A DNA stretch of 64,000 nucleotides from Psilocybe cubensis (taxonomy: Eukaryota): assembly GCA_017499595.2 (NCBI GenBank), contig CM039003.1, positions 2,232,001 through 2,296,000 on the forward strand, written 5' to 3'. Shown piece by piece: positions 10,776 through 52,300 of this stretch. Numbering within the stretch: position 1 is the stretch's first letter; each line of letters starts with the position of its first letter. The position numbers and the translations under genes are program-made. The notes beneath the pieces were generated by a model, which searched no databases, was not told where the DNA came from, and worked only from the letters and a program-made list of their open reading frames with translations.

Positions 10776-11380
10776 ATGGAATCTCATTCATCTGTAAGCA
10801 TAGTGATATTGCATTTGATAAGGTTGTACTTATTTCCGTTTTCCTCTCAGTATCCGATTCTATCTAGTTTGCTTGCCAAATATCCACGCGCTTCATCTAG
10901 CCTTTTCCAAACTTACAACGATATTGTATACGGTACACCTTCTCTTTACCTGTCGAAGGATCTGGTAGGCTGAAGACTTTATTAGCTCAGCAATGGAACG
11001 ATGTGAAAGTGATAGATCTCGAGTACTGTTCGCGAGGAGCCATAGCGGGCAGGAAGCGTGATACGGTGTGTGCTACAGACTTTCGACATTGATGCAATAT
11101 CTCATTGTTTCCTTCAATCAGGAAGAGAATCTCTATGTTGTTCCCTGTGCTCTGTCTGAGACTCTTAGTTTCGCTTGGTGAGTCAATTACTCTCAATTGC
11201 GGTCACCCTACTTGAATACCATAAAGGATTCGGGATGCATTCTCCCAGCTATTCCCCAACTTGGAAAAGACCCATGAAGCGGTATCCAACCCTCCATATA
11301 TTTTTCTCGCCATAACCTCAACCGACGCTTCTATTGTATATTACAAACTCAGTTACGGAATTGTCAAACCGCTTGTCTGA
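10776..11380 (+). CDS. SEN15: tRNA-splicing endonuclease subunit Sen15-like
   Basis: Spliced product ...LFQTYNDIVY-AQQWNDVKVIDL...YVVPCALSE...IFLAITSTDASIVYYKLSYGIVKP matches the Sen15 C-terminal signature. Confidence 0.8.
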
Positions 11381-11764: not shown

Positions 11765-12454
11765 CTAGCAGCACATTTCGCAAGGGCAACCTGGTAGTGG
11801 TTTGAGGTATGAGTTTCTATTGACATGAAGCACGCAGTTTTCGGAGACTTACAGATGATATCCGCAGCGCACTCGCAGCATCCCTGAAAGATAGTTGACA
11901 TGTGGAAAGCACTAGCGATGGCATGAAAGCGTTGCCTACCTCGCAGCATTCTGTTCAAATTGGCTTGCTTTAGTGCGCTGATTCATTCGTTTGGGGATGA
12001 CTTACCGAAGCAAAGGAAACATCCGACGAGTCCCAAGAAGCAGTCCTGTGAAATATTCGCATGTCAGACTATAGCCGCACCCGAGGAAACAACGTGTAAA
12101 CAAGGAGGCAAGAAAATGCCCGATAATCAAATTCGACGGTTCACCTCCGGAGAACTATATTTCAATGGAAAAGAACACAAAAACTCTTACTAACCTTTCC
12201 AGCTCCTCCACCACGAAGACGGGACGCCTTTTGCTTCTGGTGCTCACAGTTCTGATGTTGGTGGTTCTCGGAGGTCTCTCCAGAGACTTTCATGACCTCT
12301 GTTCGTAATCATCGTAATTTTGGTCAGCCTTCAACTATCGGGTTACACTTCAACAACATCGAGGAGTGGTGTATGAAGGTCAAAAAGCAGTTATATGCTC
12401 ACTCATCTCAGTTGCAGCTTGAGGCTGGCTGGTCTTGGCGGTAGTAGATTCCAT
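11765..12454 (-). CDS. 87-aa Cys-rich (CYSTM-like) small protein, paralog A, 6 exons
   Basis: Exons 12454-12403, 12298-12195, 12045-12006, 11950-11940, 11883-11853, 11790-11765, all GT-AG, give MESTTAKTSQPQAATEMKVMKVSGETSENHQHQNCEHQKQKASRLRGGGAGKDCFLGLVGCFLCFECCEGCCECAADIICCPCEMCC. Confidence 0.88.
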
Positions 12455-13032
12455 TCTCGCAAGATATAAACGTAAGCCTTGAGAAAGTGAGAAAAAAACC
12501 AAATTGACTGGTAAAGGGCGAAGGAAGGGATGTGGGTAAACAGAGAGCTGTTTATATAGGTGGAGATGAGTCTAAATGCGGCCATGATGCCCTCCACGGA
12601 CAACGCTGTCTGCCTATTTTTGGATTTACTACGTAGTAACCTATTTATTTATAGCTTTGGGCGTTGTGCAGCCTTTCGTCCGACCGATTTAACCAAACGT
12701 TGATGACATGATGCCTACTGGCTTAATGGGGTGAAAAGGCCCCCGAGTAGCACCAAGGGCAGAAATAACGCTTCGAGGGATTGATGATAATCATGGAACT
12801 GAGACAAAATCCAACGATTACTTCGAAACCCGAGGCGAAGAACAATTGAGGCATCTATGTGCGCGGAACGAGGGCATCATCCCACCGTACATTTAGGCCG
12901 GTGTTATTAACATGTTGCAAAACTTTCATAAAACCAAGCAATCTGCGTAGTTAAGAAATAATTATAAGAATCGTCATTGAAATGAATGAAAAAATATAAT
13001 TGTCCAGATCAAACATGAAATTTGGGATCTGT

Positions 13033-13579
13033 TCAACAACACATTTCACAAGGGCAGCCTACCCGTCTACAGTTGAGTATAGTTCTAGTGAATTCAGAAC
13101 GAGAACTCACAGAGACAATCTCCTACGCATCCGCAGCAAATCTGTAGCAGAGGAGCGGTCAATCAATAATCTGCCAATTGGCCTAGACATGGTGACGAGG
13201 CTGCGAAAGCGCACCTCACAGCATTCTTCCGAAATCATTGATATTAGTAGAAAATCAAAAACTCACGAAGGTCACTCACCAAAGCACAGGAAACAGCTGA
13301 CGCATACAATGAAACACTCCTATAGATAATTTGAGTTAAAGCACAAAAAGGTGATACTATTGATGAAGACCTCACCTTTGCAGCACCACCTCCTCGAATC
13401 CTAGTGGTACCGGACCCAACAGATTCTCTCGTTGATTGATTATGATGCTTTGTGGGGCCGGTAGGATTACTGATAATTTCTGGGTCACATCAGATACAGC
13501 GAGGTTATCTTGATGAATAAGACGCACGCATCTCAACTGAAGGTCTAAGTTGTTCGGAGCGCTTTTTTGATGCTTCCAT
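13033..13579 (-). CDS. 87-aa Cys-rich (CYSTM-like) small protein, paralog B, 6 exons
   Basis: Exons 13579-13528, 13479-13376, 13319-13280, 13225-13215, 13141-13111, 13058-13033 give MEASKKRSEQLRPSVEMQIISNPTGPTKHHNQSTRESVGSGTTRIRGGGAAKECFIVCVSCFLCFECCEICCGCVGDCLCCPCEMCC; exon sizes identical to paralog A. Confidence 0.88.
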
Positions 13580-15334
13580 CGATGTCACAAATGCAAAAGG
13601 GTATGGGGAAAAGATGGCTATGTGGAATGCGAGAAAATTATGCACATTCTTATACTACAAGTGATATCAGCAAACAACACATTTGCATTCCTTAAGTGAC
13701 ACCAACAACTAACCTGACCCCAACTATTTGGCCCAACCTCATCGTTTCTTTTTACAGTGGTCTGCGTTAGCCAGTGCATGTCTAGTGACCGAATAGAGAA
13801 AAAGACTAAGCAAGTGGTTGATCGACGTGGACTGTGTCTCAGACTCCTCAGCGTATAGCTAGCCAGCGACTTTGGATATTAAAATCCGAATGTTATGGTG
13901 TGCATGGATGCGGTAACCTGATACGACGTCGGTCTGCAAAAATGAAATAGATAGATGAAGCTTTGGTACGGGTTGATGTCTTGTATACGCCACATTCCAA
14001 TGTTGAATGAATGTCCAAAAAAGCAAAAGTGATCATGCAATGAACCGTAAGTTTTGGGAAGGAAAACTGAGAATGACAAGGCGATATGCAAGTAAAACTT
14101 CCTGGTACAAGACCTGAGGTCGAAGACGGGAAAGAACGATCGCCCAAACACTATCTGATAGATTGATATCAACGTCAACGTTCCAAGAGGCATTGTTATA
14201 TGAAAGGAGTCTAGTGCATACCTCTACAGCATGAAAGAACGCAGACACAAGCACCATACGATTGAATGCGCATATTATTCTCAACGAATTGGCAGGGAAA
14301 TATTCGCATCGGCCTCAGCTGGGGTTTTCTTCCCATGCATGCACTAGAAAGTAGAGCCCAACGCCATGCAAAATTTGAGGAGGATGTGTTCCCCTTGGGC
14401 CTTGGATCAGATAACGACGATAAACCTCATTGTCCCATTTGTTGTGCGTCCGCCGGATTGCAGGTTGTAGCGAAGCTGGCTGATCGAGAAAGGTGAGTTT
14501 GATACCCACTCCACTAACTTGTGAGATTGCTACAGTCGTTTGTAAAATGAAATCCAGCTTGTGTTGCAGCACTCCTTAATAAAAAAGGTAGTTTGTAGAC
14601 AGTGAGGTGTGGTGGTTTAATGAGTGACTTAGGTGCTACGGCCCGGCGATATTCCCCGACGCCTGGGAATACAAGTTGCATTTGGTTCAACTTGGCACAT
14701 CTACTTTCAACTTAGATCTCATGTCCACATATAACACGTCTCGACATGATAATACTGGCTACTCTACAAAAGGCTATGGTCCATACGATCCAATACTTTG
14801 ATAACACAGAGACGCACGGAACACGGTAGATCACCGTTTAGGATGCACACAAAGAAGCCTGTCTATCTCAGAAGTCCCGAGCTCCCTTGACATTTCCCAA
14901 TGGTGTCGGTAAGAGTCGGTATGCTGGGACAAAAGTGTCACAAAATGTCCACGTTGGTGGGTATGTATTGCTGGGAAGACCTAAGGGAAATTACACGACA
15001 ATTTAGATATAACCACGACACGATACAATATTGCAGATAGGCCCATCCCCAACACTCTTTCGCTACCCCACAACACAGAGACTTCAACCCCTATTGTCGA
15101 AGCTACATCCCAATTCGTTGACCCATACTTTTTACCGATGCCACCAAGGTCAACAATAATGCTCCAACAGATATCAAGTGTCGCAAGTCGTCAAATCTCC
15201 CAGATCTTGCGTCTTCCTCTACAAACCATCTGTTGCGCAAAAAGGATCACTCTATTGCGCCTTTATTTCCTCTTTCTCTCTTTCCTTTTAAAGTGAAGGC
15301 AAACCCATCGCACATTGCAGATGAATTCATACCA

Positions 15335-16675
15335 TCAAAATTCTTCGAGTACTGGCAAGGGACCGTTATTTACTACCAATGGTGTCAATTTTTCCGAAAA
15401 TCCGTCATCGTTACGCGCCTTAACAACTTTCTCCTTTGCTTTGGCTTTCGGACCCCACCCCACCCTTCCTTCTTGCCATGGACCCGCTCCACTCAACGCG
15501 CATCCTCCTTCCTCTGCACATTTGCAAGTGCCTCCCAGAAAGTCAGGCAAATTCTCCGCATATATTAGGTCCAAAAGGACATCTTTATAGTCGCTTCCAA
15601 GCACGTCGACTTTCTGCGCAGTTTCTTTGGATAACCAAGGCTTTATCGCATTCCATATAATCGTGAATGAAGAAGGAGCATTGATGATGGCCAACTGGCC
15701 CATACTGGAGATACACCAAACCTAAACAGAGATATTGGCGAGGAAGAGGGAGCACGCACGTTTCTGGATAATAGTCTTGCGACATTTGGAAGGAACTTCT
15801 CACCAAGGATTTCATCTGCCAAAATGCACCTATCCTTTAACAACAAGTTCAGATTTCTCCGACATTATAATTCCCGCAGTGAACATACCCAAATCCTTTC
15901 AAATCAACTATCACAAATGTCGTTCCAATCGGTTTTCCTGCAGCTCTCGACGAAGCAGGGAGGATTTCCCTGGTGAGCTATGAAAAGCATTAGCCGTAAA
16001 TACACCTCTGTATAACCCATGATTCGACTAACACATTCGGCATTAACGATCATGGTTTCCCAGTGTCTCTCTGGTGTGCACACTTTATATAGCTTTGTAA
16101 GGTCCATGCCGCCGAATACGTGAACATTCAGAGGGCGTCCTTGCTACAGACGATGTCAGTCATTTGCCAAAAAATGATTCTTTCATTGCTGACTTTGTCG
16201 GTCTAAAGGATTAATGATTTAGGGCATAAATAGACTCAAAGGAAGTTACAAGCGAACCTTGTGGAACCATAGTGGCCAACATTCAAATACTGCCTCACGT
16301 TCAGGATACTGTTAGACGTTCATCATTCTTTCCGATATCTCAAGAGAATCACAGAGCTCTGCTTACATCAAAGGGATCTGTTCTCTTGTAAAGCTCGTCT
16401 ACTCCAACGCTGCCTACGGTCTTCCGCCAGTTTTGACATTCTCTAAACATCTTTTTCGAATGGGCTAAATCAAATTTGCGTGCTCTCAGAAATCGGCTGT
16501 CAAAATATATTGCAGAAAGAAAATAAGTATGACACCCTCTGTAGGATTTGGGGTTTAGTACTTACAGTAGGGTTTCATCGTCTGACCCTATGCTGTCCCC
16601 GTTGTGTAAGATGCCTTCTGCATACAGGCTCTCCCGGAAAGCTCTCAGGATTTCTAATTGTTTTGAATTCGACAT
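15335..16675 (-). CDS. Sec14/CRAL-TRIO lipid transfer protein (multi-exon)
   Basis: DDETLL-RFLRARKFD, QDYYPET-MGQLAIINAPSSFTIIWNAIKPWL, ENLPDFLGGTCKC. Confidence 0.92.
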
Positions 16676-43370: not shown

Positions 43371-46300
43371 CGAGACTGCCCAACCTCTGCCCCCTGTCCC
43401 CATCAACGAACTTAGGAATAGCGTTGCTCTCGACACTATTGCGTGTTATGGTCATTTTTTCAACATCACCACGCCCATTAATGCTGTCCGTCTGCACGCC
43501 TACCTCTTGCAACACCCGAATCCCGACTACGTGAATTCTGTCATCGATGGCATCCAGAATGGGTTCTGGCCGTGGGCCGACACGGCTCGCACCCACTTGC
43601 CTCCGACCCTCGACGTCACCGAATACCTCACCGAGGAACGCCACATCACCTTCGCCAGCGAGCAGCGCGACATCAAAATCTCAAAGGGGCGTTTTTCTCA
43701 ATCCTTCAGTTCCTTGCTTCCCGGGATGCTTGCAGTTCCAGTAGGGGTTGTACCCAAGCCTCACTCCCACAAACTCCGACTCGTTGTCAACCATAGCGCT
43801 GAACCTTTCGCACGAAACTCGTTGATCGACAAAACACTGGTTTCTGTACCTCTCGACAGCGTTCAGTCACTCGGTAGTGTCATCCTTCAGCTGCGTCGGG
43901 AGGCCGGTCCACACGCTGAGCTCGTCCTCTTCAAGAGTGATGTGTCCGAAGCTTACAGACTCTGTCCTATGGCCCCTTTGTGGCAGATCAAGCAGGTTGT
44001 CAAGATCAACGGCCTTTTCAACGTTGACCGTTGCAACAACTTTGGTAGCAGAGCAGGAGGGGGCGTGTGGGGTGCCATTTTCAGCCTCATCTTGTGGATC
44101 GCTACCTCGATCTTGCTCATCCCTGATCTCTTTGGTTACGTCGACGACGTTTTCTCAGTCACCCTAGCTGGCAACACTCTTTGGTACGCTCCGTACAATA
44201 AGATTCTGCCCGAACCTCAAGCCCGACTCCTCATGCTCTGGGACGAGCTGGGCGTTCCGCATGCCGAAGACAAACAGCTCTCCGGCACAGCCCTGACTAT
44301 CATCGGGTTTTACGTCGACACCGTGGCCATGACAATCACCATGCCCCTCGACTCCCTCCTCAACCTCATTCATGCGATCCGCGAGTTTGCCGTGATGGGT
44401 CGCCGTCCAACACTAGCTGATTACCAAGCAATCGCAGGGTGGATCAACTGGGCGTTAAACACCTATCCCCTCCTACGCCCCTGCCTGTCTAGCGTTTACG
44501 CAAAGATGGCAGGCAAGCACATTTCCTCTGCCAAAATCTACGTCAATAAGCGCGTCTGCCAGGAACTCATCTGGGCGGCAAACCACCTTGAGACATGCAA
44601 TGGCGTGCTGTTCCTGGAGTCCTTGGACTGGGACCTGGCTGAGGCCGACTACATCCTTCTGACGGACGCTTGTCTGTTTGGGATGGGCTTCTGGTCTCCA
44701 TGTCATGACTACGGTTTCCAATATCGCATCGTGTCCGCCTCACGCCCAATCTTCTACTGGGAGGCTTACACTGTCCTCTCCGCATTTGCTTGGATCCTCT
44801 CCTCCTGTTCTCCCCCACCCAAGCGCGTCGTCATCTACTGCGACAATACCAACACCGTAAATCTTTTCAGCACACTTCGCGCCACTCCGGACTACAACCC
44901 CATTGTCCTCACTGCCGCCGACCTCATGCTACGTTTCAACTGCCAGCTGCGAGTGGTGCATATCGCAGGCGGTCAGAACACAGTTGCAGACTCCATTTCA
45001 CGCTTCGACAATCAAGTCGCCCTCTCCTTCCGTCCCAATCTCCTGATTCGGAATTTTTTACCCCCACAGTTGATGCTGGGGGCAGATCTTTGATGGCCCC
45101 ACTGTCCCGCCCCAGGCAACCCGCAAGGATTGCCTGGTCGCTCGAGCGCTTACACCATGAACAAGCTATAGCTCTTGGATTTGCGCTCGAGCCCTCCTCC
45201 ATTGCCGCCTACTCTTCCGCCCTCCACTCTTACATCGCTTTTTGCAACCTCCACGCTTTCCCTATCGAACCTACCGCTGATACTCTCAGTTTTTTCATCG
45301 TGTTTATGTCCCACCACATCAAACCCTCTTCCGTGGCTGCCTACCTTTCCGGCATCTGCAGCCAGCTGGAGGCTTTTTACCCATCCATCCGCTCAACCCG
45401 TCAGTCACAACTCGTTCGCCGTACCCTCACAGGCTGCATCAAACTCCGTTCTGTCCCCACCACACGCCAGACGGCTGTTTCCTCAGAACAGATGCTAAGC
45501 CTCCACTCTCGCCTCATTCACTCCAATGACTACGACACGCTGCTCTTCCTGGCCATTTGCACCGCCGCATTCAACGGTCTCCTGCGCATGGGTGAGTGCG
45601 TGTGGCCGGACTCTCACCACCTGCGTGACTACCGTAAGGTTACCCGCCGCGCCACAGTGGAATCTACGCCATCCTCCTTCTCCTTCTTGCTACCTTCGCA
45701 CAAGGCAGATCGCCTTTACGAGGGAAATAAGGTGGTGATTCACGCCTCTAACGCAGGACAGGAAGCCCTTCTGGCTCTGCAGTTATACCTCGCACGCCGT
45801 GACAATGCTTTCCCTTTGAAACCCGAGTTATGGCTCCGTAGCGACGGCTCAGTCCCAACTCGTCGTTGGATGACATCCTTGCTCAAGTCATCCTTCCCAG
45901 GCCTCAGAATCTCAGGACACTCGTTTTGCCCCGGCGGCGCCACCTACCTGGCATTGCGCCGTGTCCCTTCCCATATCATCCAGGCGATGGGCCGTTGGAA
46001 GTCTGACACCTTCCAAACCTACATCCGAGAACACCCCGCCCTGTTGGCGGCACTTCTCTACACCTCCGTTGACCCTCGCACCACCCCATAGATGCTTGTT
46101 TTTTCTGTCCTTCTTGACTCCCCTTTCCTGCACCCTTTCCCCAGGGCGTGTCTCCGTACGTCCGCTGTTGTCTGCTTATTGTCTCATAACTTCCCTGGTT
46201 TTCGCTGTTATCACCGACCTCAGGCATCCCTCAACGTTAGATGTCGTCGGATGTACTGTGTCGCGCGTTTCCGTGTGTTTCTCAAATTTATGCTTTCATG

Positions 46301-48008
46301 CCACCTTCAAATCTTTTCTTCAACCATCATACCTCCTTACCGCTTTTTTGTACCTCCCGCAGTCGTTACACATTTTTTAGAGTACAAACTGCGCAAATAC
46401 ATCTCTTTTCTTTTTGCAGACGCCGCTGCTGATCACAGGGCGGGCGTCGTGCACCATCTACACAACATCGGGTGACCGTGCTTGAGAACATCTGAAAGCG
46501 TGATTAGTCGAGTTTAGATAATGTTTATTTACACAAGTCTAATCACGCCGAAGACCCGCTCGTTTCAGGGAGCCTCACCTCTCTGACCGCTTCCAGTTCA
46601 ACAAACACCAACATTCAAGGGTGGGCTCCCCCCAGTTGTCGACCCAACATGTACCACCCGACATGAATGTTTGAGCTTTGTCTGAACAGGAGAACCGCGC
46701 TCGCATGCTTTGCAGCCTTTTCTCCGACACGTCTTGTCTCTGCAACAAGAAGTGCATCTCGACGCACCTCAGCATAAAAGACCGCCTGGAGAATCTGGTT
46801 CTCGCACTTTTGCGTCCCCCGCTCTCCAGGTAAGCTTTTACTGCTCGAAACTCGCTCGACTTCATCACCGCTGACCTCTGTTTTGCGTCCCCCGCTCTCC
46901 AGATCACGGTCACCCGAGTCTCTCTGCTCTCTACCCACCATCCATCCCTACAGTCACCACCTCTCTCAAACAATCATGGCTTTGCCCGCTAGCGCTTACA
47001 GTGTCTCTCAAGACACCCGGATGCCCAAGTGCTCACCACGTCCCACATCCGTTCGGGCATCTCCCGCGTTCAGCTACGATTTACCTACACCCAACAATTC
47101 CGTCATACACCGTTACGGGCAGCGCACACCAACAGCGGGCGAACTCCTCGTACTACGCGAAGAACTAGAGGAGCAATTTAGGGACATGCCTGACATGGAG
47201 CTATTGGTTTACCTATTCGATTCCGTGTTATCGTGCCACTCAGAGTGGGGTTGGCGCGGTCGTTTCATTCGCCAGTTCTTTTATGACCTATTCTACGAAA
47301 TGCGTCGCCTAGGCTACTCCGAGTACGAATTGCTACGCTCTCTATTCCTGGCGCCCTGACGTACCCCAGATTTGCATGCGTTTCTTAGTACACACTGTCC
47401 CTTCACGCGTGCTACTCTTTTGTCCCGCTTTTTTGTACCTCCCGCAGTCGTTACACATTTTTTAGAGTACAAACTGCGCAAATACATCTCTTTTCTTTTT
47501 GCAGACGCCGCTGCTGATCACAGGGCGGGCGTCGTGCACCATCTACACAACATCGGGTGACCGTGCTTGAGAACATCTGAAAGCGTGATTAGTCGAGTTT
47601 AGATAATGTTTATTTACACAAGTCTAATCACGCCGAAGACCCGCTCGTTTCAGGGAGCCTCACCTCTCTGACCGCTTCCAGTTCAACAAACACCAACATT
47701 CAAGGGTGGGCTCCCCCCAGTTGTCGACCCAACATGTACCACCCGACATGAATGTTTGAGCTTTGTCTGAACAGGAGAACCGCGCTCGCATGCTTTGCAG
47801 CCTTTTTTCCGACACGTCTTGTCTCTGCAACAAGAAGTGCATCTCGACGCACCTCAGCATAAAAGACCGCCTGGAGAATCTGGTTCTCGCACTTTTGCGT
47901 CCCCCGCTCTCCAGGTAAGCTTTTACTGCTCGAAACTCGCTCGACTTCATCACCGCTGACCTCTGTTTTGCGTCCCCCGCTCTCCAGATCACGGTCACCC
48001 GAGTCTCT
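43371..48008 (+). mobile_element. Ngaro copy 2, 5'-truncated (RT/RH-YR-B-A-X-B-A)
   Basis: Near-identical to copy 1 from about 36443; RT frame open to 45093; YR 45093-46091 has HSFR changed to HSFC. Confidence 0.92.
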
Positions 48009-51000
48009 AAAAGCGGGACAAAAGAGTAGCACGCGTGAAGGGACAGTGTGTACTAAGAAACGCATGCAAATCTGGGGTACGTCAGGGCGCCAGGAATAGA
48101 GAGCGTAGCAATTCGTACTCGGAGTAGCCTAGGCGACGCATTTCGTAGAATAGGTCATAAAAGAACTGGCGAATGAAACGACCGCGCCAACCCCACTCTG
48201 AGTGGCACGATAACACGGAATCGAATAGGTAAACCAATAGCTCCATGTCAGGCATGTCCCTAAATTGCTCCTCTAGTTCTTCGCGTAGTACGAGGAGTTC
48301 GCCCGCTGTTGGTGTGCGCTGCCCGTAACGGTGTATGACGGAATTGTTGGGTGTAGGTAAATCGTAGCTGAACGCGGGAGATGCCCGAACGGATGTGGGA
48401 CGTGGTGAGCACTTGGGCATCCGGGTGTCTTGAGAGACACTGTAAGCGCTAGCGGGCAAAGCCATGATTGTTTGAGAGAGGTGGTGACTGTAGGGATGGA
48501 TGGTGGGTAGAGAGCAGAGAGACTTGGGTGACCGTGATCTGGAGAGCGGGGGACGCAAAACAGAGGTCAGCGGTGATGAAGTCGAGCGAGTTTCGAGCAG
48601 TAAAAGCTTACCTGGAGAGCGGGGGACGCAAAAGTGCGAGAACCAGATTCTCCAGGCGGTCTTTTATGCTGAGGTGCGTCGAGATGCACTTCTTGTTGCA
48701 GAGACAAGACGTGTCGGAGAAAAGGCTGCAAAGCATGCGAGCGCGGTTCTCCTGTTCAGACAAAGCTCAAACATTCATGTCGGGTGGTACATGTTGGGTC
48801 GACAACTGGGGGGAGCCCACCCTTGAATGTTGGTGTTTGTTGAACTGGAAGCGGTCAGAGAGGTGAGGCTCCCTGAAACGAGCGGGTCTTCGGCGTGATT
48901 AGACTTGTGTAAATAAACATTATCTAAACTCGACTAATCACGCTTTCAGATGTTCTCAAGCACGGTCACCCGATGTTGTGTAGATGGTGCACGACGCCCG
49001 CCCTGTGATCAGCAGCGGCGTCTGCAAAAAGAAAAGAGATGTATTTGCGCAGTTTGTACTCTAAAAAATGTGTAACGACTGCGGGAGGTACAAAAAAGCG
49101 GTAAGGAGGTATGATGGTTGAAGAAAAGATTTGAAGGTGGCATGAAAGCATAAATTTGAGAAACACACGGAAACGCGCGACACAGTACATCCGACGACAT
49201 CTAACGTTGAGGGATGCCTGAGGTCGGTGATAACAGCGAAAACCAGGGAAGTTATGAGACAATAAGCAGACAACAGCGGACGTACGGAGACACGCCCTGG
49301 GGAAAGGGTGCAGGAAAGGGGAGTCAAGAAGGACAGAAAAAACAAGCATCTATGGGGTGGTGCGAGGGTCAACGGAGGTGTAGAGAAGTGCCGCCAACAG
49401 GGCGGGGTGTTCTCGGATGTAGGTTTGGAAGGTGTCAGACTTCCAACGGCCCATCGCCTGGATGATATGGGAAGGGACACGGCGCAATGCCAGGTAGGTG
49501 GCGCCGCCGGGGCGAAACGAGTGTCCTGAGATTCCGAGGCCTGGGAAGGATGACTTGAGCAAGGATGTCATCCAACGACGAGTTGGGACTGAGCCGTCGC
49601 TACGGAGCCATAACTCGGGTTTCAAAGGGAAAGCATTGTCACGGCGTGCGAGGTATAACTGCAGAGCCAGAAGGGCTTCCTGTCCTGCGTTAGAGGTGTG
49701 AATCACCACCTTATTTCCCTCGTAAAGGCGATCTGCCTTGTGCGAAGGTAGCAAGAAGGAGAAGGAGGATGGCGTAGATTCCACTGTGGCGCGGCGGGTA
49801 ACCTTACGGTAGTCACGCAGGTGGTGAGAGTCCGGCCACACGCACTCACCCATGCGCAGGAGACCGTTGAATGCGGCGGTGCAAATGGCCAGGAAGAGCA
49901 GCGTGTCGTAGTCATTGGAGTGAATGAGGCGAGAGTGGAGGCTTAGCATCTGTTCTGAGGAAACAGCCGTCTGGCGTGTGGTGGGGACAGAACGGAGTTT
50001 GATGCAGCCTGTGAGGGTACGGCGAACGAGTTGTGACTGACGGGTTGAGCGGATGGATGGGTAAAAAGCCTCCAGCTGGCTGCAGATGCCGGAAAGGTAG
50101 GCAGCCACGGAAGAGGGTTTGATGTGGTGGGACATAAACACGATGAAAAAACTGAGAGTATCAGCGGTAGGTTCGATAGGGAAAGCGTGGAGGTTGCAAA
50201 AAGCGATGTAAGAGTGGAGGGCGGAAGAGTAGGCGGCAATGGAGGAGGGCTCGAGCGCAAATCCAAGAGCTATAGCTTGTTCATGGTGTAAGCGCTCGAG
50301 CGACCAGGCAATCCTTGCGGGTTGCCTGGGGCGGGACAGTGGGGCCATCAAAGATCTGCCCCCAGCATCAACTGTGGGGGTAAAAAATTCCGAATCAGGA
50401 GATTGGGACGGAAGGAGAGGGCAACTTGATTGTCGAAGCGTGAAATGGAGTCTGCAACTGTGTTCTGACCGCCTGCGATATGCACCACTCGCAGCTGGCA
50501 GTTGAAACGTAGCATGAGGTCGGCGGCAGTGAGGACAATGGGGTTGTAGTCCGGAGTGGCGCGAAGTGTGCTGAAAAGATTTACGGTGTTGGTATTGTCG
50601 CAGTAGATGACGACGCGCTTGGGTGGGGGAGAACAGGAGGAGAGGATCCAAGCAAATGCGGAGAGGACAGTGTAAGCCTCCCAGTAGAAGATTGGGTGTG
50701 AGGCGGACACGATGCGATATTGGAAACCGTAGTCATGACATGGAGACCAGAAGCCCATCCCGAACAGACAAGCGTCCGTCAGAAGGATGTAGTCGGCCTC
50801 AGCCAGGTCCCAGTCCAAGGACTCCAGGAACAGCACGCCATTGCATGTCTCAAGGTGGTTTGCCGCCCAGATGAGTTCCTGGCAGACGCGCTTATTGACG
50901 TAGATTTTGGCAGAGGAAATGTGCTTGCCTGCCATCTTTGCGTAAACGCTAGACAGGCAGGGGCGTAGGAGGGGATAGGTGTTTAACGCCCAGTTGATCC

Positions 51001-52300
51001 ACCCTGCGATTGCTTGGTAATCAGCTAGTGTTGGACGGCAACCCATCACGGCAAACTCGCGGATCGCATGAATGAGGTTGAGGAGGGAGTCGAGGGGCAT
51101 GGTGATTGTCATAGCCACGGTGTCGACGTAAAACCCGATGATAGTCAGGGCTGTGCCGGAGAGCTGTTTGTCTTCGGCATGCGGAACGCCCAGCTCGTCC
51201 CAGAGCATGAGGAGTCGGGCTTGAGGTTCGGGCAGAATCTTATTGTACGGGGCGTACCAAAGAGTGTTGCCAGCTAGGGTGACTGAGAAAACGTCGTCGA
51301 CGTAACCAAAGAGATCAGGGATGAGCAAGATCGAGGTAGCGATCCACAAGATGAGGCTGAAAATGGCGCCCCACACGCCCCCTCCTGCTCTGCTTCCCAA
51401 AGTTGTTGCAACGGTCAATGTTGAAAAGGCCGTTGATCTTGACAACCTGCTTGATCTGCCACAAAGGGGCCATAGGACAGAGTCTGTAAGCTTCGGACAC
51501 ATCGCTCTTGAAGAGGACGAGCTCAGCGTGTGGACCGGCCTCCCGACGCAGCCGAAGGATGACACTACCGAGTGACTGAACGCTGTCGAGAGGTACAGAA
51601 ACCAGTGTTTTGTTGATCAACGAGTTTCGTGCGAAAGGTTCAGCGCTATGGTTGACAACGAGTCGGAGTTTGTGGGAGTGAGGCTTGGGTACAACCCCTA
51701 CTGGAACTGCAAGCATCCCGGGAAGCAAGGAACTGAAGGATTGAGAAAAACGCCCCTTTGAGATTTTGATGTCGCGCTGCTCGCTGGCGAAGGTGATGTG
51801 GCGTTCCTCGGTGAGGTATTCGGTGACGTCGAGGGTCGGAGGCAAGTGGGTGTCAGGGCAACACTATAATCAGTGTGACAAGGCCACCAACAAAGATTAA
51901 GCAAGAGAGAAAGAGAGAGAGCAGAGGGAGAGTAAGAGAGCAAAGAGAGAATAAGAGAGTGAGAGAGATTCAATGGTTCTAAGAGATCACACCAATGATA
52001 GTGGATATCCTAAGAGATTGAAGCTGAAGCTACAGCTACCTACAAGTCCAGTATTTATACTCTACAGCTATGCTAGAATATTCTCTACATTACATCATAA
52101 AGAAAGGTTAAAGAATAAAAGTGACATCATATAGAAAAAGGATGAGTAAGACTAGGAATGATATAGAATTTACTAGAAAGAAGTGGAGCAAGAAGGCTGT
52201 GATGAAAGAAATAAACTATCTAATCAGATAATTGATAAGATAATGAAAGGATAAGATAATTCTGTGAAGATAAAGAGGGGAAACTGGAGAAACCCTGACA

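Follow-up and report, generated by a model that had tools for sequence, protein, structure and literature searches.

Two tandem genes, here called A and B, lie in a 64,000-nucleotide (nt) stretch of the Psilocybe cubensis genome (GenBank assembly GCA_017499595.2, contig CM039003.1, positions 2,232,001 to 2,296,000 of the forward strand; this whole stretch is hereafter the window). In both encoded proteins, R(L/I)RGG at residues 44-48 is followed by GA(G/A)K and a Cys-rich tail ending in CCPCEMCC, and sequence comparison identifies the pair as unannotated members of a Basidiomycota-wide, publicly deposited, uncharacterised family that is partly named CYSTM. We lean modestly towards reading these as uncleaved small cytosolic proteins anchored by fatty-acylated cysteines, within a Dikarya-wide CYSTM-like "LRGGG-CFECC" family.

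The predicted layout has three parts. A polar, disordered head with a conserved QP motif would lead into a near-invariant basic and glycine-rich hinge (R-x-R-G-G-G-A-G-K-D) and then a short apolar Cys/Phe/Leu helix, to which the Basidiomycota proteins appear to add an acidic Cys-rich extension ending in CCPCEMCC. By analogy with yeast Cpp1-3, the cysteine string would be multiply S-acylated (palmitoylated) and would tether the protein to a membrane from the cytosolic side. The Arg and Lys residues (R-x-R...K) would rest on acidic head groups of the lipids, with the Gly run as a flexible joint between head and anchor. A likely role, by comparison with other CYSTM proteins, would be in stress or metal tolerance at the membrane.

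In yeast, the CYSTM/CYSPD proteins Cpp1-3 are reported to bind membranes via palmitoylation and not through a transmembrane helix, and to need Akr1 and Erf2; hydroxylamine releases yeast CYSTM proteins, which depend on neither GET nor EMC (PMC10840359). In genes A and B the N-terminus is polar, with no signal peptide-like segment, and the longest uncharged apolar run is 12 residues with Glu on each side; a run of this kind fits a cysteine-string anchor more readily than a segment that spans the membrane. If acylation is correct, these proteins would represent a fungal equivalent of cysteine-string anchors.

Two spliced micro-exon genes

A first-pass annotation of the window, made by a model from the letters alone, had described two six-exon genes with exons of 52/104/40/11/31/26 nt, each encoding 87 amino acids (aa) and both missing from the open reading frame (ORF) track. 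These models were borne out by an exhaustive search for an ATG, exons of these sizes, GT/GC..AG introns of 30-250 nt and an open frame to the stop, which returned exactly one open model in the gene A stretch and one in the gene B stretch. Their absence from the ORF track is plausible, since ATG-started ORFs of at least 40 aa capture only fragments of either gene. The introns range from 48 to 149 nt, and all ten are GT..AG. Gene B lies 578 bp upstream of gene A in tandem, and a tblastn search of the 64-kb window with both proteins revealed no third copy. The features are as follows, in window positions:

11765..12454, minus strand: gene A, exons 12454-12403, 12298-12195, 12045-12006, 11950-11940, 11883-11853 and 11790-11765; 87 aa; unique model
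13033..13579, minus strand: gene B, exons 13579-13528, 13479-13376, 13319-13280, 13225-13215, 13141-13111 and 13058-13033; 87 aa; unique model
12195..12221, minus strand: gene A motif RLRGGGAGK (residues 44-52), the final nine codons of exon 2, with a phase-0 intron immediately after
13376..13402, minus strand: gene B motif RIRGGGAAK (residues 44-52), with which exon 2 ends
11940..11950, minus strand: gene A micro-exon 4 (11 nt), which finishes a Glu codon and then encodes Cys-Cys-Glu; 9 letters between at joint 11885/12006 in sequencing runs X1 and X2
13215..13225, minus strand: gene B micro-exon 4 (11 nt); 9 letters between at joint 13143/13280 in X1 and X2
11765..12045, minus strand: gene A tail, exons 3-6 (40/11/31/26 nt), a 12-residue apolar Cys/Phe/Leu segment and then an acidic Cys-rich extension ending in CCPCEMCC
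13655..13713, minus strand: gene B 5' leader intron (59 nt, GT..AG, ends GTTAGT..TTGTAG), joint 13654/13714 in X1 and X2

Both genes are real and spliced, as seen in assembled contigs of presumed RNA runs. These are two runs of one study (X1 and X2), from a strain about 97% alike, whose RNA status is a guess (label "RNA?"), no run being recorded as RNA. Their contigs join across five of five introns in gene A and five of five in gene B at the predicted borders, and both 11-nt micro-exons are retained. In two runs of a second study (X3 and X4), the same stretch is unspliced, as DNA, in long contigs. Junction evidence had been proposed in the first pass as one check on its proposal, with a lack of spliced transcripts counting against it; all ten introns are removed in the X1 and X2 contigs. 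Gene A is under purifying selection: the three exonic between-strain differences listed are all synonymous, against about 14 listed in its introns. Pseudogenes or chance ORFs are ruled out by the spliced contigs, the intact frames and the synonymous-only exonic differences.

The first-pass description of divergent N-halves joined to a shared R(L/I)RGG-GA(G/A)K and a CCPCEMCC tail agrees with the identities between A and B, which are 7 of 43 residues in the N-halves and 31 of 44 in the C-halves. The codons used in the motif differ between the genes for five of the seven shared residues, so the motif has been kept at the protein level. The tail is Cys-rich as described, although the count of 12-14 cysteines was slightly wrong: gene A has 13 and gene B 15 after the GG, within 39 residues and with Glu and Asp interspersed.

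Two further observations concern the sequence on either side of the coding exons. The spliced leader of gene B (13580-13900, minus strand) contains an upstream ATG (13777-13779) in frame with the main ATG and with no intervening stop, which would add 47 codons that bear no family likeness; the RNA contig extends about 630 nt past 13900, and the main ATG is thus only a putative start. The spliced contig of gene A runs through 11500 and about 570 nt further, reflecting either a long 3' untranslated region or overlap with the end of a convergent gene on the plus strand, the last ORF of which stops near 11380.

The Basidiomycota family and its Eurotiales relatives

Pfam, fold and database searches used close intronless metagenome homologues in place of the window's own spliced proteins, while blastp of spliced A and B was run locally against the listed family proteins. 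Read stop to stop (48 aa), the exon-2 frame of gene A has one database match, a Psilocybe cyanescens protein (P0002) that is 86% identical. The head of that entry is correct and its whole Cys-rich tail is read in the wrong frame, a misprediction; it has no match in Pfam.

A degenerate pattern for the last exon (CPCEMCC plus stop) matched 68 metagenome loci. Five of these have no introns, and each bears a full ORF (81-90 aa) with R(L/I)RGGG(A/V)(G/A)K. Another 47 are genomic and were rebuilt with the same tail exon sizes (40/11/31/26). The other 16 gave no model; they include some incomplete contigs, and three loci (L004, L048 and L051) resemble chance matches. An in-frame ..R.RGGG..[KR] stands immediately 5' of the GT donor in 44 of the 47 rebuilt loci; two of the three exceptions have too little upstream sequence and the third, L063, is truly without the motif.

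L063 sits beside L062 on one metagenome contig and is a divergent tandem paralogue with a gene B-like tail (..DC.CCPCEMCC). No R-x-R-G-G-G occurs within 900 nt upstream of it in any frame, and its exon 2 likely ends in ..HHLK. If L063 is expressed, the motif would be dispensable in that copy.

A family profile built from the five intronless (metatranscript-like) ORFs matched 218 proteins at E<=1e-3, and the motif counts for Basidiomycota given here refer to the 120 matches listed (P0003-P0122), about 20 of which bear the UniRef name CYSTM. The exhaustive search of 1.84 billion proteins matched 98 cluster representatives. Among the matches listed, gene A is closest to Galerina marginata P0022 (74% identity over 88 residues, E 4e-51) and by this comparison appears to be a standard, conserved copy of the family. 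The closest match to gene B, P0018, is only 49% identical (E 1e-32), so gene B looks like a divergent, fast-evolving tandem duplicate. Pairs on one contig occur elsewhere as well (L044/L045, L062/L063, and adjacent locus tags in Athelia and Amanita). The nearest ESM Atlas cluster has the CYSTM name (score 0.96), and a plant cluster of PF12734 stands at rank 11 (score 0.82), which we treat as a lead only.

Micro-exon genes of this kind (exons of 11-40 nt) slip past ORF tracks and gene callers: the P. cyanescens tail is mispredicted, and many of the 98 representatives pair a correct head with a nonsense tail. Mis-annotation is widespread in the family; like P0002, many of P0123-P0214 keep the head up to the motif and then continue in a wrong-frame tail or run into introns.

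Among the 120 Basidiomycota matches listed, 112 have R.RGG, seven have R.RGAG and one has HVRGGG. The middle residue of the motif is mostly L, I or M, and also V, F, T, A, P or G; it is Pro in five and Gly in two of the rebuilt metagenome loci, and Thr or Ala in some proteins. In alignment A2, which was pre-filtered on the Gly run, the R, R, G and G columns (R46 and R48 for the arginines) are invariant.

From the weakest matches among the 1.84 billion proteins we reached a sister family, which comprises Aspergillus, Penicillium and allied fungi and has 168 proteins at E<=1e-3, of which 120 matches are listed. Of those listed, [LMIV]RGGG is present in 114, CFECC in 112 and R.RGG in only four. 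By hhalign, the Basidiomycota and Eurotiales families align with 98.1% probability (E 7.6e-14) over 33 columns, and the alignment begins at (R)LRGGG. The Eurotiales "LRGGG-CFECCEECC" proteins (P0198, P0207, P0212 and P0215-P0330) carry a homologous module from hRGGG through CFECCE, and resemble the Basidiomycota proteins in having a QP motif in the head and in their size of 77-90 aa. They differ in having no CCPCEMCC extension, stopping directly after CFECCE(E/C)CC, in having a single Arg, and in placing QP only about 10 residues ahead of the motif. The motif is genuine and old, and on this alignment and these counts the conserved core is hydrophobic-R-G-G-G followed by the Cys helix. Conservation of RxRGG-G in relatives was a check that the first pass had set for its own proposal, and it holds in the listed matches, in the rebuilt loci and, as RGGG, in the Eurotiales proteins listed. 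The pair is thereby placed in a Basidiomycota-wide family with a sister family in Eurotiales.

Likeness to CYSTM and the case for an anchor

CYSTM proteins were defined as small proteins in which the head is polar, the N-terminal element extended and the linker variable, ahead of a C-terminal helix of 5-6 Cys, 3-4 of them consecutive; an acidic residue follows the helix, and the module stands at the extreme C-terminus (PMC2804304). Likeness to canonical CYSTM was judged from the alignment in that founding paper. The proteins of genes A and B are 87 aa long, and the AlphaFold2 model of the closest intronless ORF shows no secondary structure over residues 1-50 (pLDDT mostly <50). In A2, Q10, P11 and M17 are at least 90% conserved (QPQ...M.VM), resembling the CYSTM consensus ..ps.Yh.p (for example, QQPVYVQQ); AlphaFold2 predicted no strand at this element in what is a poor model, and gene B has no QP. 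The founding alignment has a "+" column at 80% consensus and then Gly/Ser-rich residues before the Cys helix, with Aspergillus members reading RGG...GGG. The family under study has its basic residues in the R.RGG counted above in 112 of 120 listed matches, which are unfiltered. Because a basic and Gly-rich stretch is already present in the founding alignment, the motif can be explained without cleavage, and the simplest reading is that it represents the family's form of the pre-helix hinge of the CYSTM module.

In Pfam, one of the five intronless ORFs matches CYSTM (PF12734) with 24.2 bits (E 3.6e-5), below the gathering cut-off of 25.2; the matched stretch, residues 35-71 against profile positions 2-37 of 37, contains RIRGGG. 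Together with the UniRef names, the ESM Atlas cluster and the founding alignment, this sub-threshold match upholds the earlier suggestion of a CYSTM-like tail. The family is like CYSTM/CYSPD (PF12734; Cpp1-3) in its length below 150 aa, its polar disordered head with what may be the Q/P-rich element, its basic and Gly-rich stretch and its Cys-rich apolar helix followed by acidic residues. It differs in having CC pairs, an acidic extension of 18-19 residues and the near-invariant R-x-R-G-G-G, whereas CYSTM has a patch of 3-4 Cys and a C-terminal module. On this comparison we would place the family formally outside CYSTM and see it as CYSTM in kind. The vague label "CYSTM domain-containing" can thereby be replaced by testable features, namely the R-x-R-G-G-G hinge or site, the QP motif and the cysteine string.

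The QP motif offers a possible docking lead for S-acyltransferases of the zDHHC17/Akr1 type. The ankyrin-binding motif of zDHHC17 is reported to be (VIAP)(VIT)xxQP and to be present in SNAP25 and cysteine-string protein (PMC5655499). CSP-alpha and SNAP25 resemble the family in their dense cysteine string near apolar residues and in a QP motif joined by a flexible linker to the cysteines (PMC7247313 and PMC5655499). They have no sequence homology to it, and acylation of the family is suggested here by analogy. QP in the head falls at residues of about 5-12 in Basidiomycota and about 41-47 in Eurotiales. Of the matches listed, 47 of the 120 from Basidiomycota fit the strict motif (shuffle mean 8.0), as do 89 of the 120 from Eurotiales (shuffle mean 8.9), with VVTEQP and ATTSQP as examples; this speaks for the acylation reading.

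Several observations weigh against an acylated anchor of the CYSTM kind, and the QP lead is the first to be affected. The shuffle control ignores relatedness, and the window genes themselves miss the strict motif, gene A by one residue (AKTSQP, with K at the second position) and gene B by having no QP. The helix is weakly supported, as the AlphaFold2 model of the L018 ORF (105 sequences) is poor, with a mean pLDDT of 50.7 and predicted helices only at 52-65 and 74-81. The Kyte-Doolittle maximum over 19 residues, 1.75 in A and 2.2 in B (residues 54-72), leaves room for a membrane-inserted segment. PF12734 matches one of 105 Basidiomycota members at E<=0.01, under the cut-off, as well as none of 54 Eurotiales members and none of 12 distant matches. 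Gene A has five Cys in C54-C68 with one CC pair only and Glu on both sides, and in Basidiomycota 18-19 residues (...CCPCEMCC) follow the module, which in the Eurotiales proteins is terminal. Laccaria and Agaricus have canonical CYSTM genes in the founding alignment, and these are distinct from the family members. The near-invariance of R-x-R-G-G-G exceeds what a simple hinge needs, and it is precisely at the motif that the variable head gives way to the conserved tail, a position that a processing site could equally occupy. Finally, no study of the family, nor experiment on any member, was found in the literature searched on CYSTM in Agaricomycetes or, judged by titles and abstracts, in Aspergillus.

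Rival readings and genomic surroundings

Three rivals to the acylated anchor deserve consideration, and the one that survives best takes the tail, chiefly its acidic extension (CC, CxC, CPC), as a metallothionein-like thiolate binder of Cu, Zn, Cd or Mn near the membrane, buffering or excluding metals, with acylation minor if present. The 13 and 15 cysteines in 39-residue tails, with Glu and Asp between them, fit this reading; no metallothionein family was matched in Pfam by the intronless ORFs or the 105 members. Metallothioneins are unlike proteins with conserved Phe/Leu and an apolar helix, which also counts against it. Related proteins do point to metals: the CYSTM founders proposed chelation, and plant CDT1 gives Cd and Cu tolerance (PMC2804304). 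A Pneumocystis murina CYSTM gene is among those reported as over-expressed after copper treatment (PMC11133566), and a link to manganese stress is reported for yeast YDR034W-B and MNC1 (PMC10217909). We regard metal binding as the chief function as possible, though unlikely. As a property of the tail, with or without cleavage, either palmitoylation or metal binding is plausible.

Under the original CYSTM model, a classical tail-anchored transmembrane protein, the Cys/Phe/Leu segment would span the bilayer and the acidic extension would be lumenal or outside (PMC2804304). The hydropathy maximum given above and the modelled helix at 52-65 in the L018 ORF favour such a span, but the segment is free of charge for only 12 residues, and the 19 residues of highest hydropathy include two Glu. 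The hydroxylamine release and the lack of GET or EMC dependence reported for yeast CYSTM proteins (PMC10840359) also argue against it, and we consider a true membrane span improbable.

The first-pass annotation had instead proposed precursors that are cut after R-x-R-G-G by a protease reading ubiquitin tails, releasing a Cys-rich peptide of about 39 aa with an N-terminal Gly and a disordered fragment of about 48 aa ending in GG. The retention of R.RGG in 112 of 120 Basidiomycota matches listed and 44 of 47 rebuilt loci, and of the LRGGG-type motif in 114 of 120 Eurotiales matches listed, is consistent with a cleavage site, and the conserved block starts at the motif, as expected of a boundary between pro-region and mature peptide. 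One study reports that ZUFSP deubiquitinases, including fungal Mug105, cut an RLRGG-AMC peptide and bind ubiquitin mainly via R-x-R (PMC8776766). Such action on bare RLRGG-AMC indicates that a ubiquitin fold is not strictly required, and it is because of these enzymes that we keep the cleavage model alive.

Nevertheless, nothing supports a relation to ubiquitin beyond the five residues, and no protein-level evidence of cleavage was found in the literature searched. What the family shares with the C-terminus of ubiquitin and with the fusion precursors is R-L-R-G-G and, as natural ubiquitin fusions have, another residue beyond it, but ubiquitin precursors have a beta-grasp domain upstream that the family lacks. 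No ubiquitin family was found upstream of the motif in Pfam at E<=10 with the intronless ORFs or at E<=0.01 with the 105 members, and no relatives of solved structure were found at E<=1. Instead, 43 polar residues precede the motif, and AlphaFold2 gives residues 1-50 no secondary structure (pLDDT <50). The motif itself varies naturally (RPRGGG, RGRGGG and RxRGAG): the position of ubiquitin Leu73 is Pro in five loci, Gly in two and, in some proteins, Thr or Ala; Ala takes the place of the second Gly in seven of 120 matches listed, and the first Arg is absent from the Eurotiales family (R.RGG in four of 120 matches listed). By a rough estimate, chance alone should give several five-residue matches to ubiquitin in each proteome. 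The proposed N-termini, GAGKDC and GAAKEC, appear not to fit the PROSITE N-myristoylation pattern, and N-myristoylation there is rejected on that ground. The N-half bears a conserved QP...M motif of its own, and canonical CYSTM proteins, which also have a basic and Gly-rich stretch, keep an N-terminal green fluorescent protein at the plasma membrane in yeast (PMC10840359). We therefore hold cleavage to be very improbable; if it does take place, the family would represent a ubiquitin-tail substrate of a new type.

A more specific version gets even less credence from us. In it, h-R-G-G-G would be a true processing site for a ZUFSP/Mug105-type protease acting on a "ubiquitin-tail" precursor without a fold, yielding a multiply acylated or metal-loaded Cys-rich peptide of about 39 aa and a disordered fragment of about 48 aa whose Gly-Gly end is free, the latter perhaps conjugated like the disordered bacterial Pup. 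What most merits work at the bench is how strictly the motif is conserved, together with the QP lead. Secreted Cys-knot peptides are ruled out by the polar N-terminus without a signal peptide-like segment.

Around the gene pair, 15 of 16 neighbouring ORFs had no match in Pfam. The other, at 15335-15721 on the minus strand, has a CRAL/TRIO (Sec14-like lipid-binding) domain (E 1.7e-12), and no functional link to genes A and B is suggested. Further along the window, positions 34556-63000 contain a dense group of kilobase-scale direct and inverted repeats of 99-100% identity, for example 3392-nt arms at 44041-47432 and 48009-51400 that lie 576 nt apart, and units spaced 1085 nt. These repeats may stem from a recent duplication or a cluster of mobile elements, or may be an artefact of assembly.

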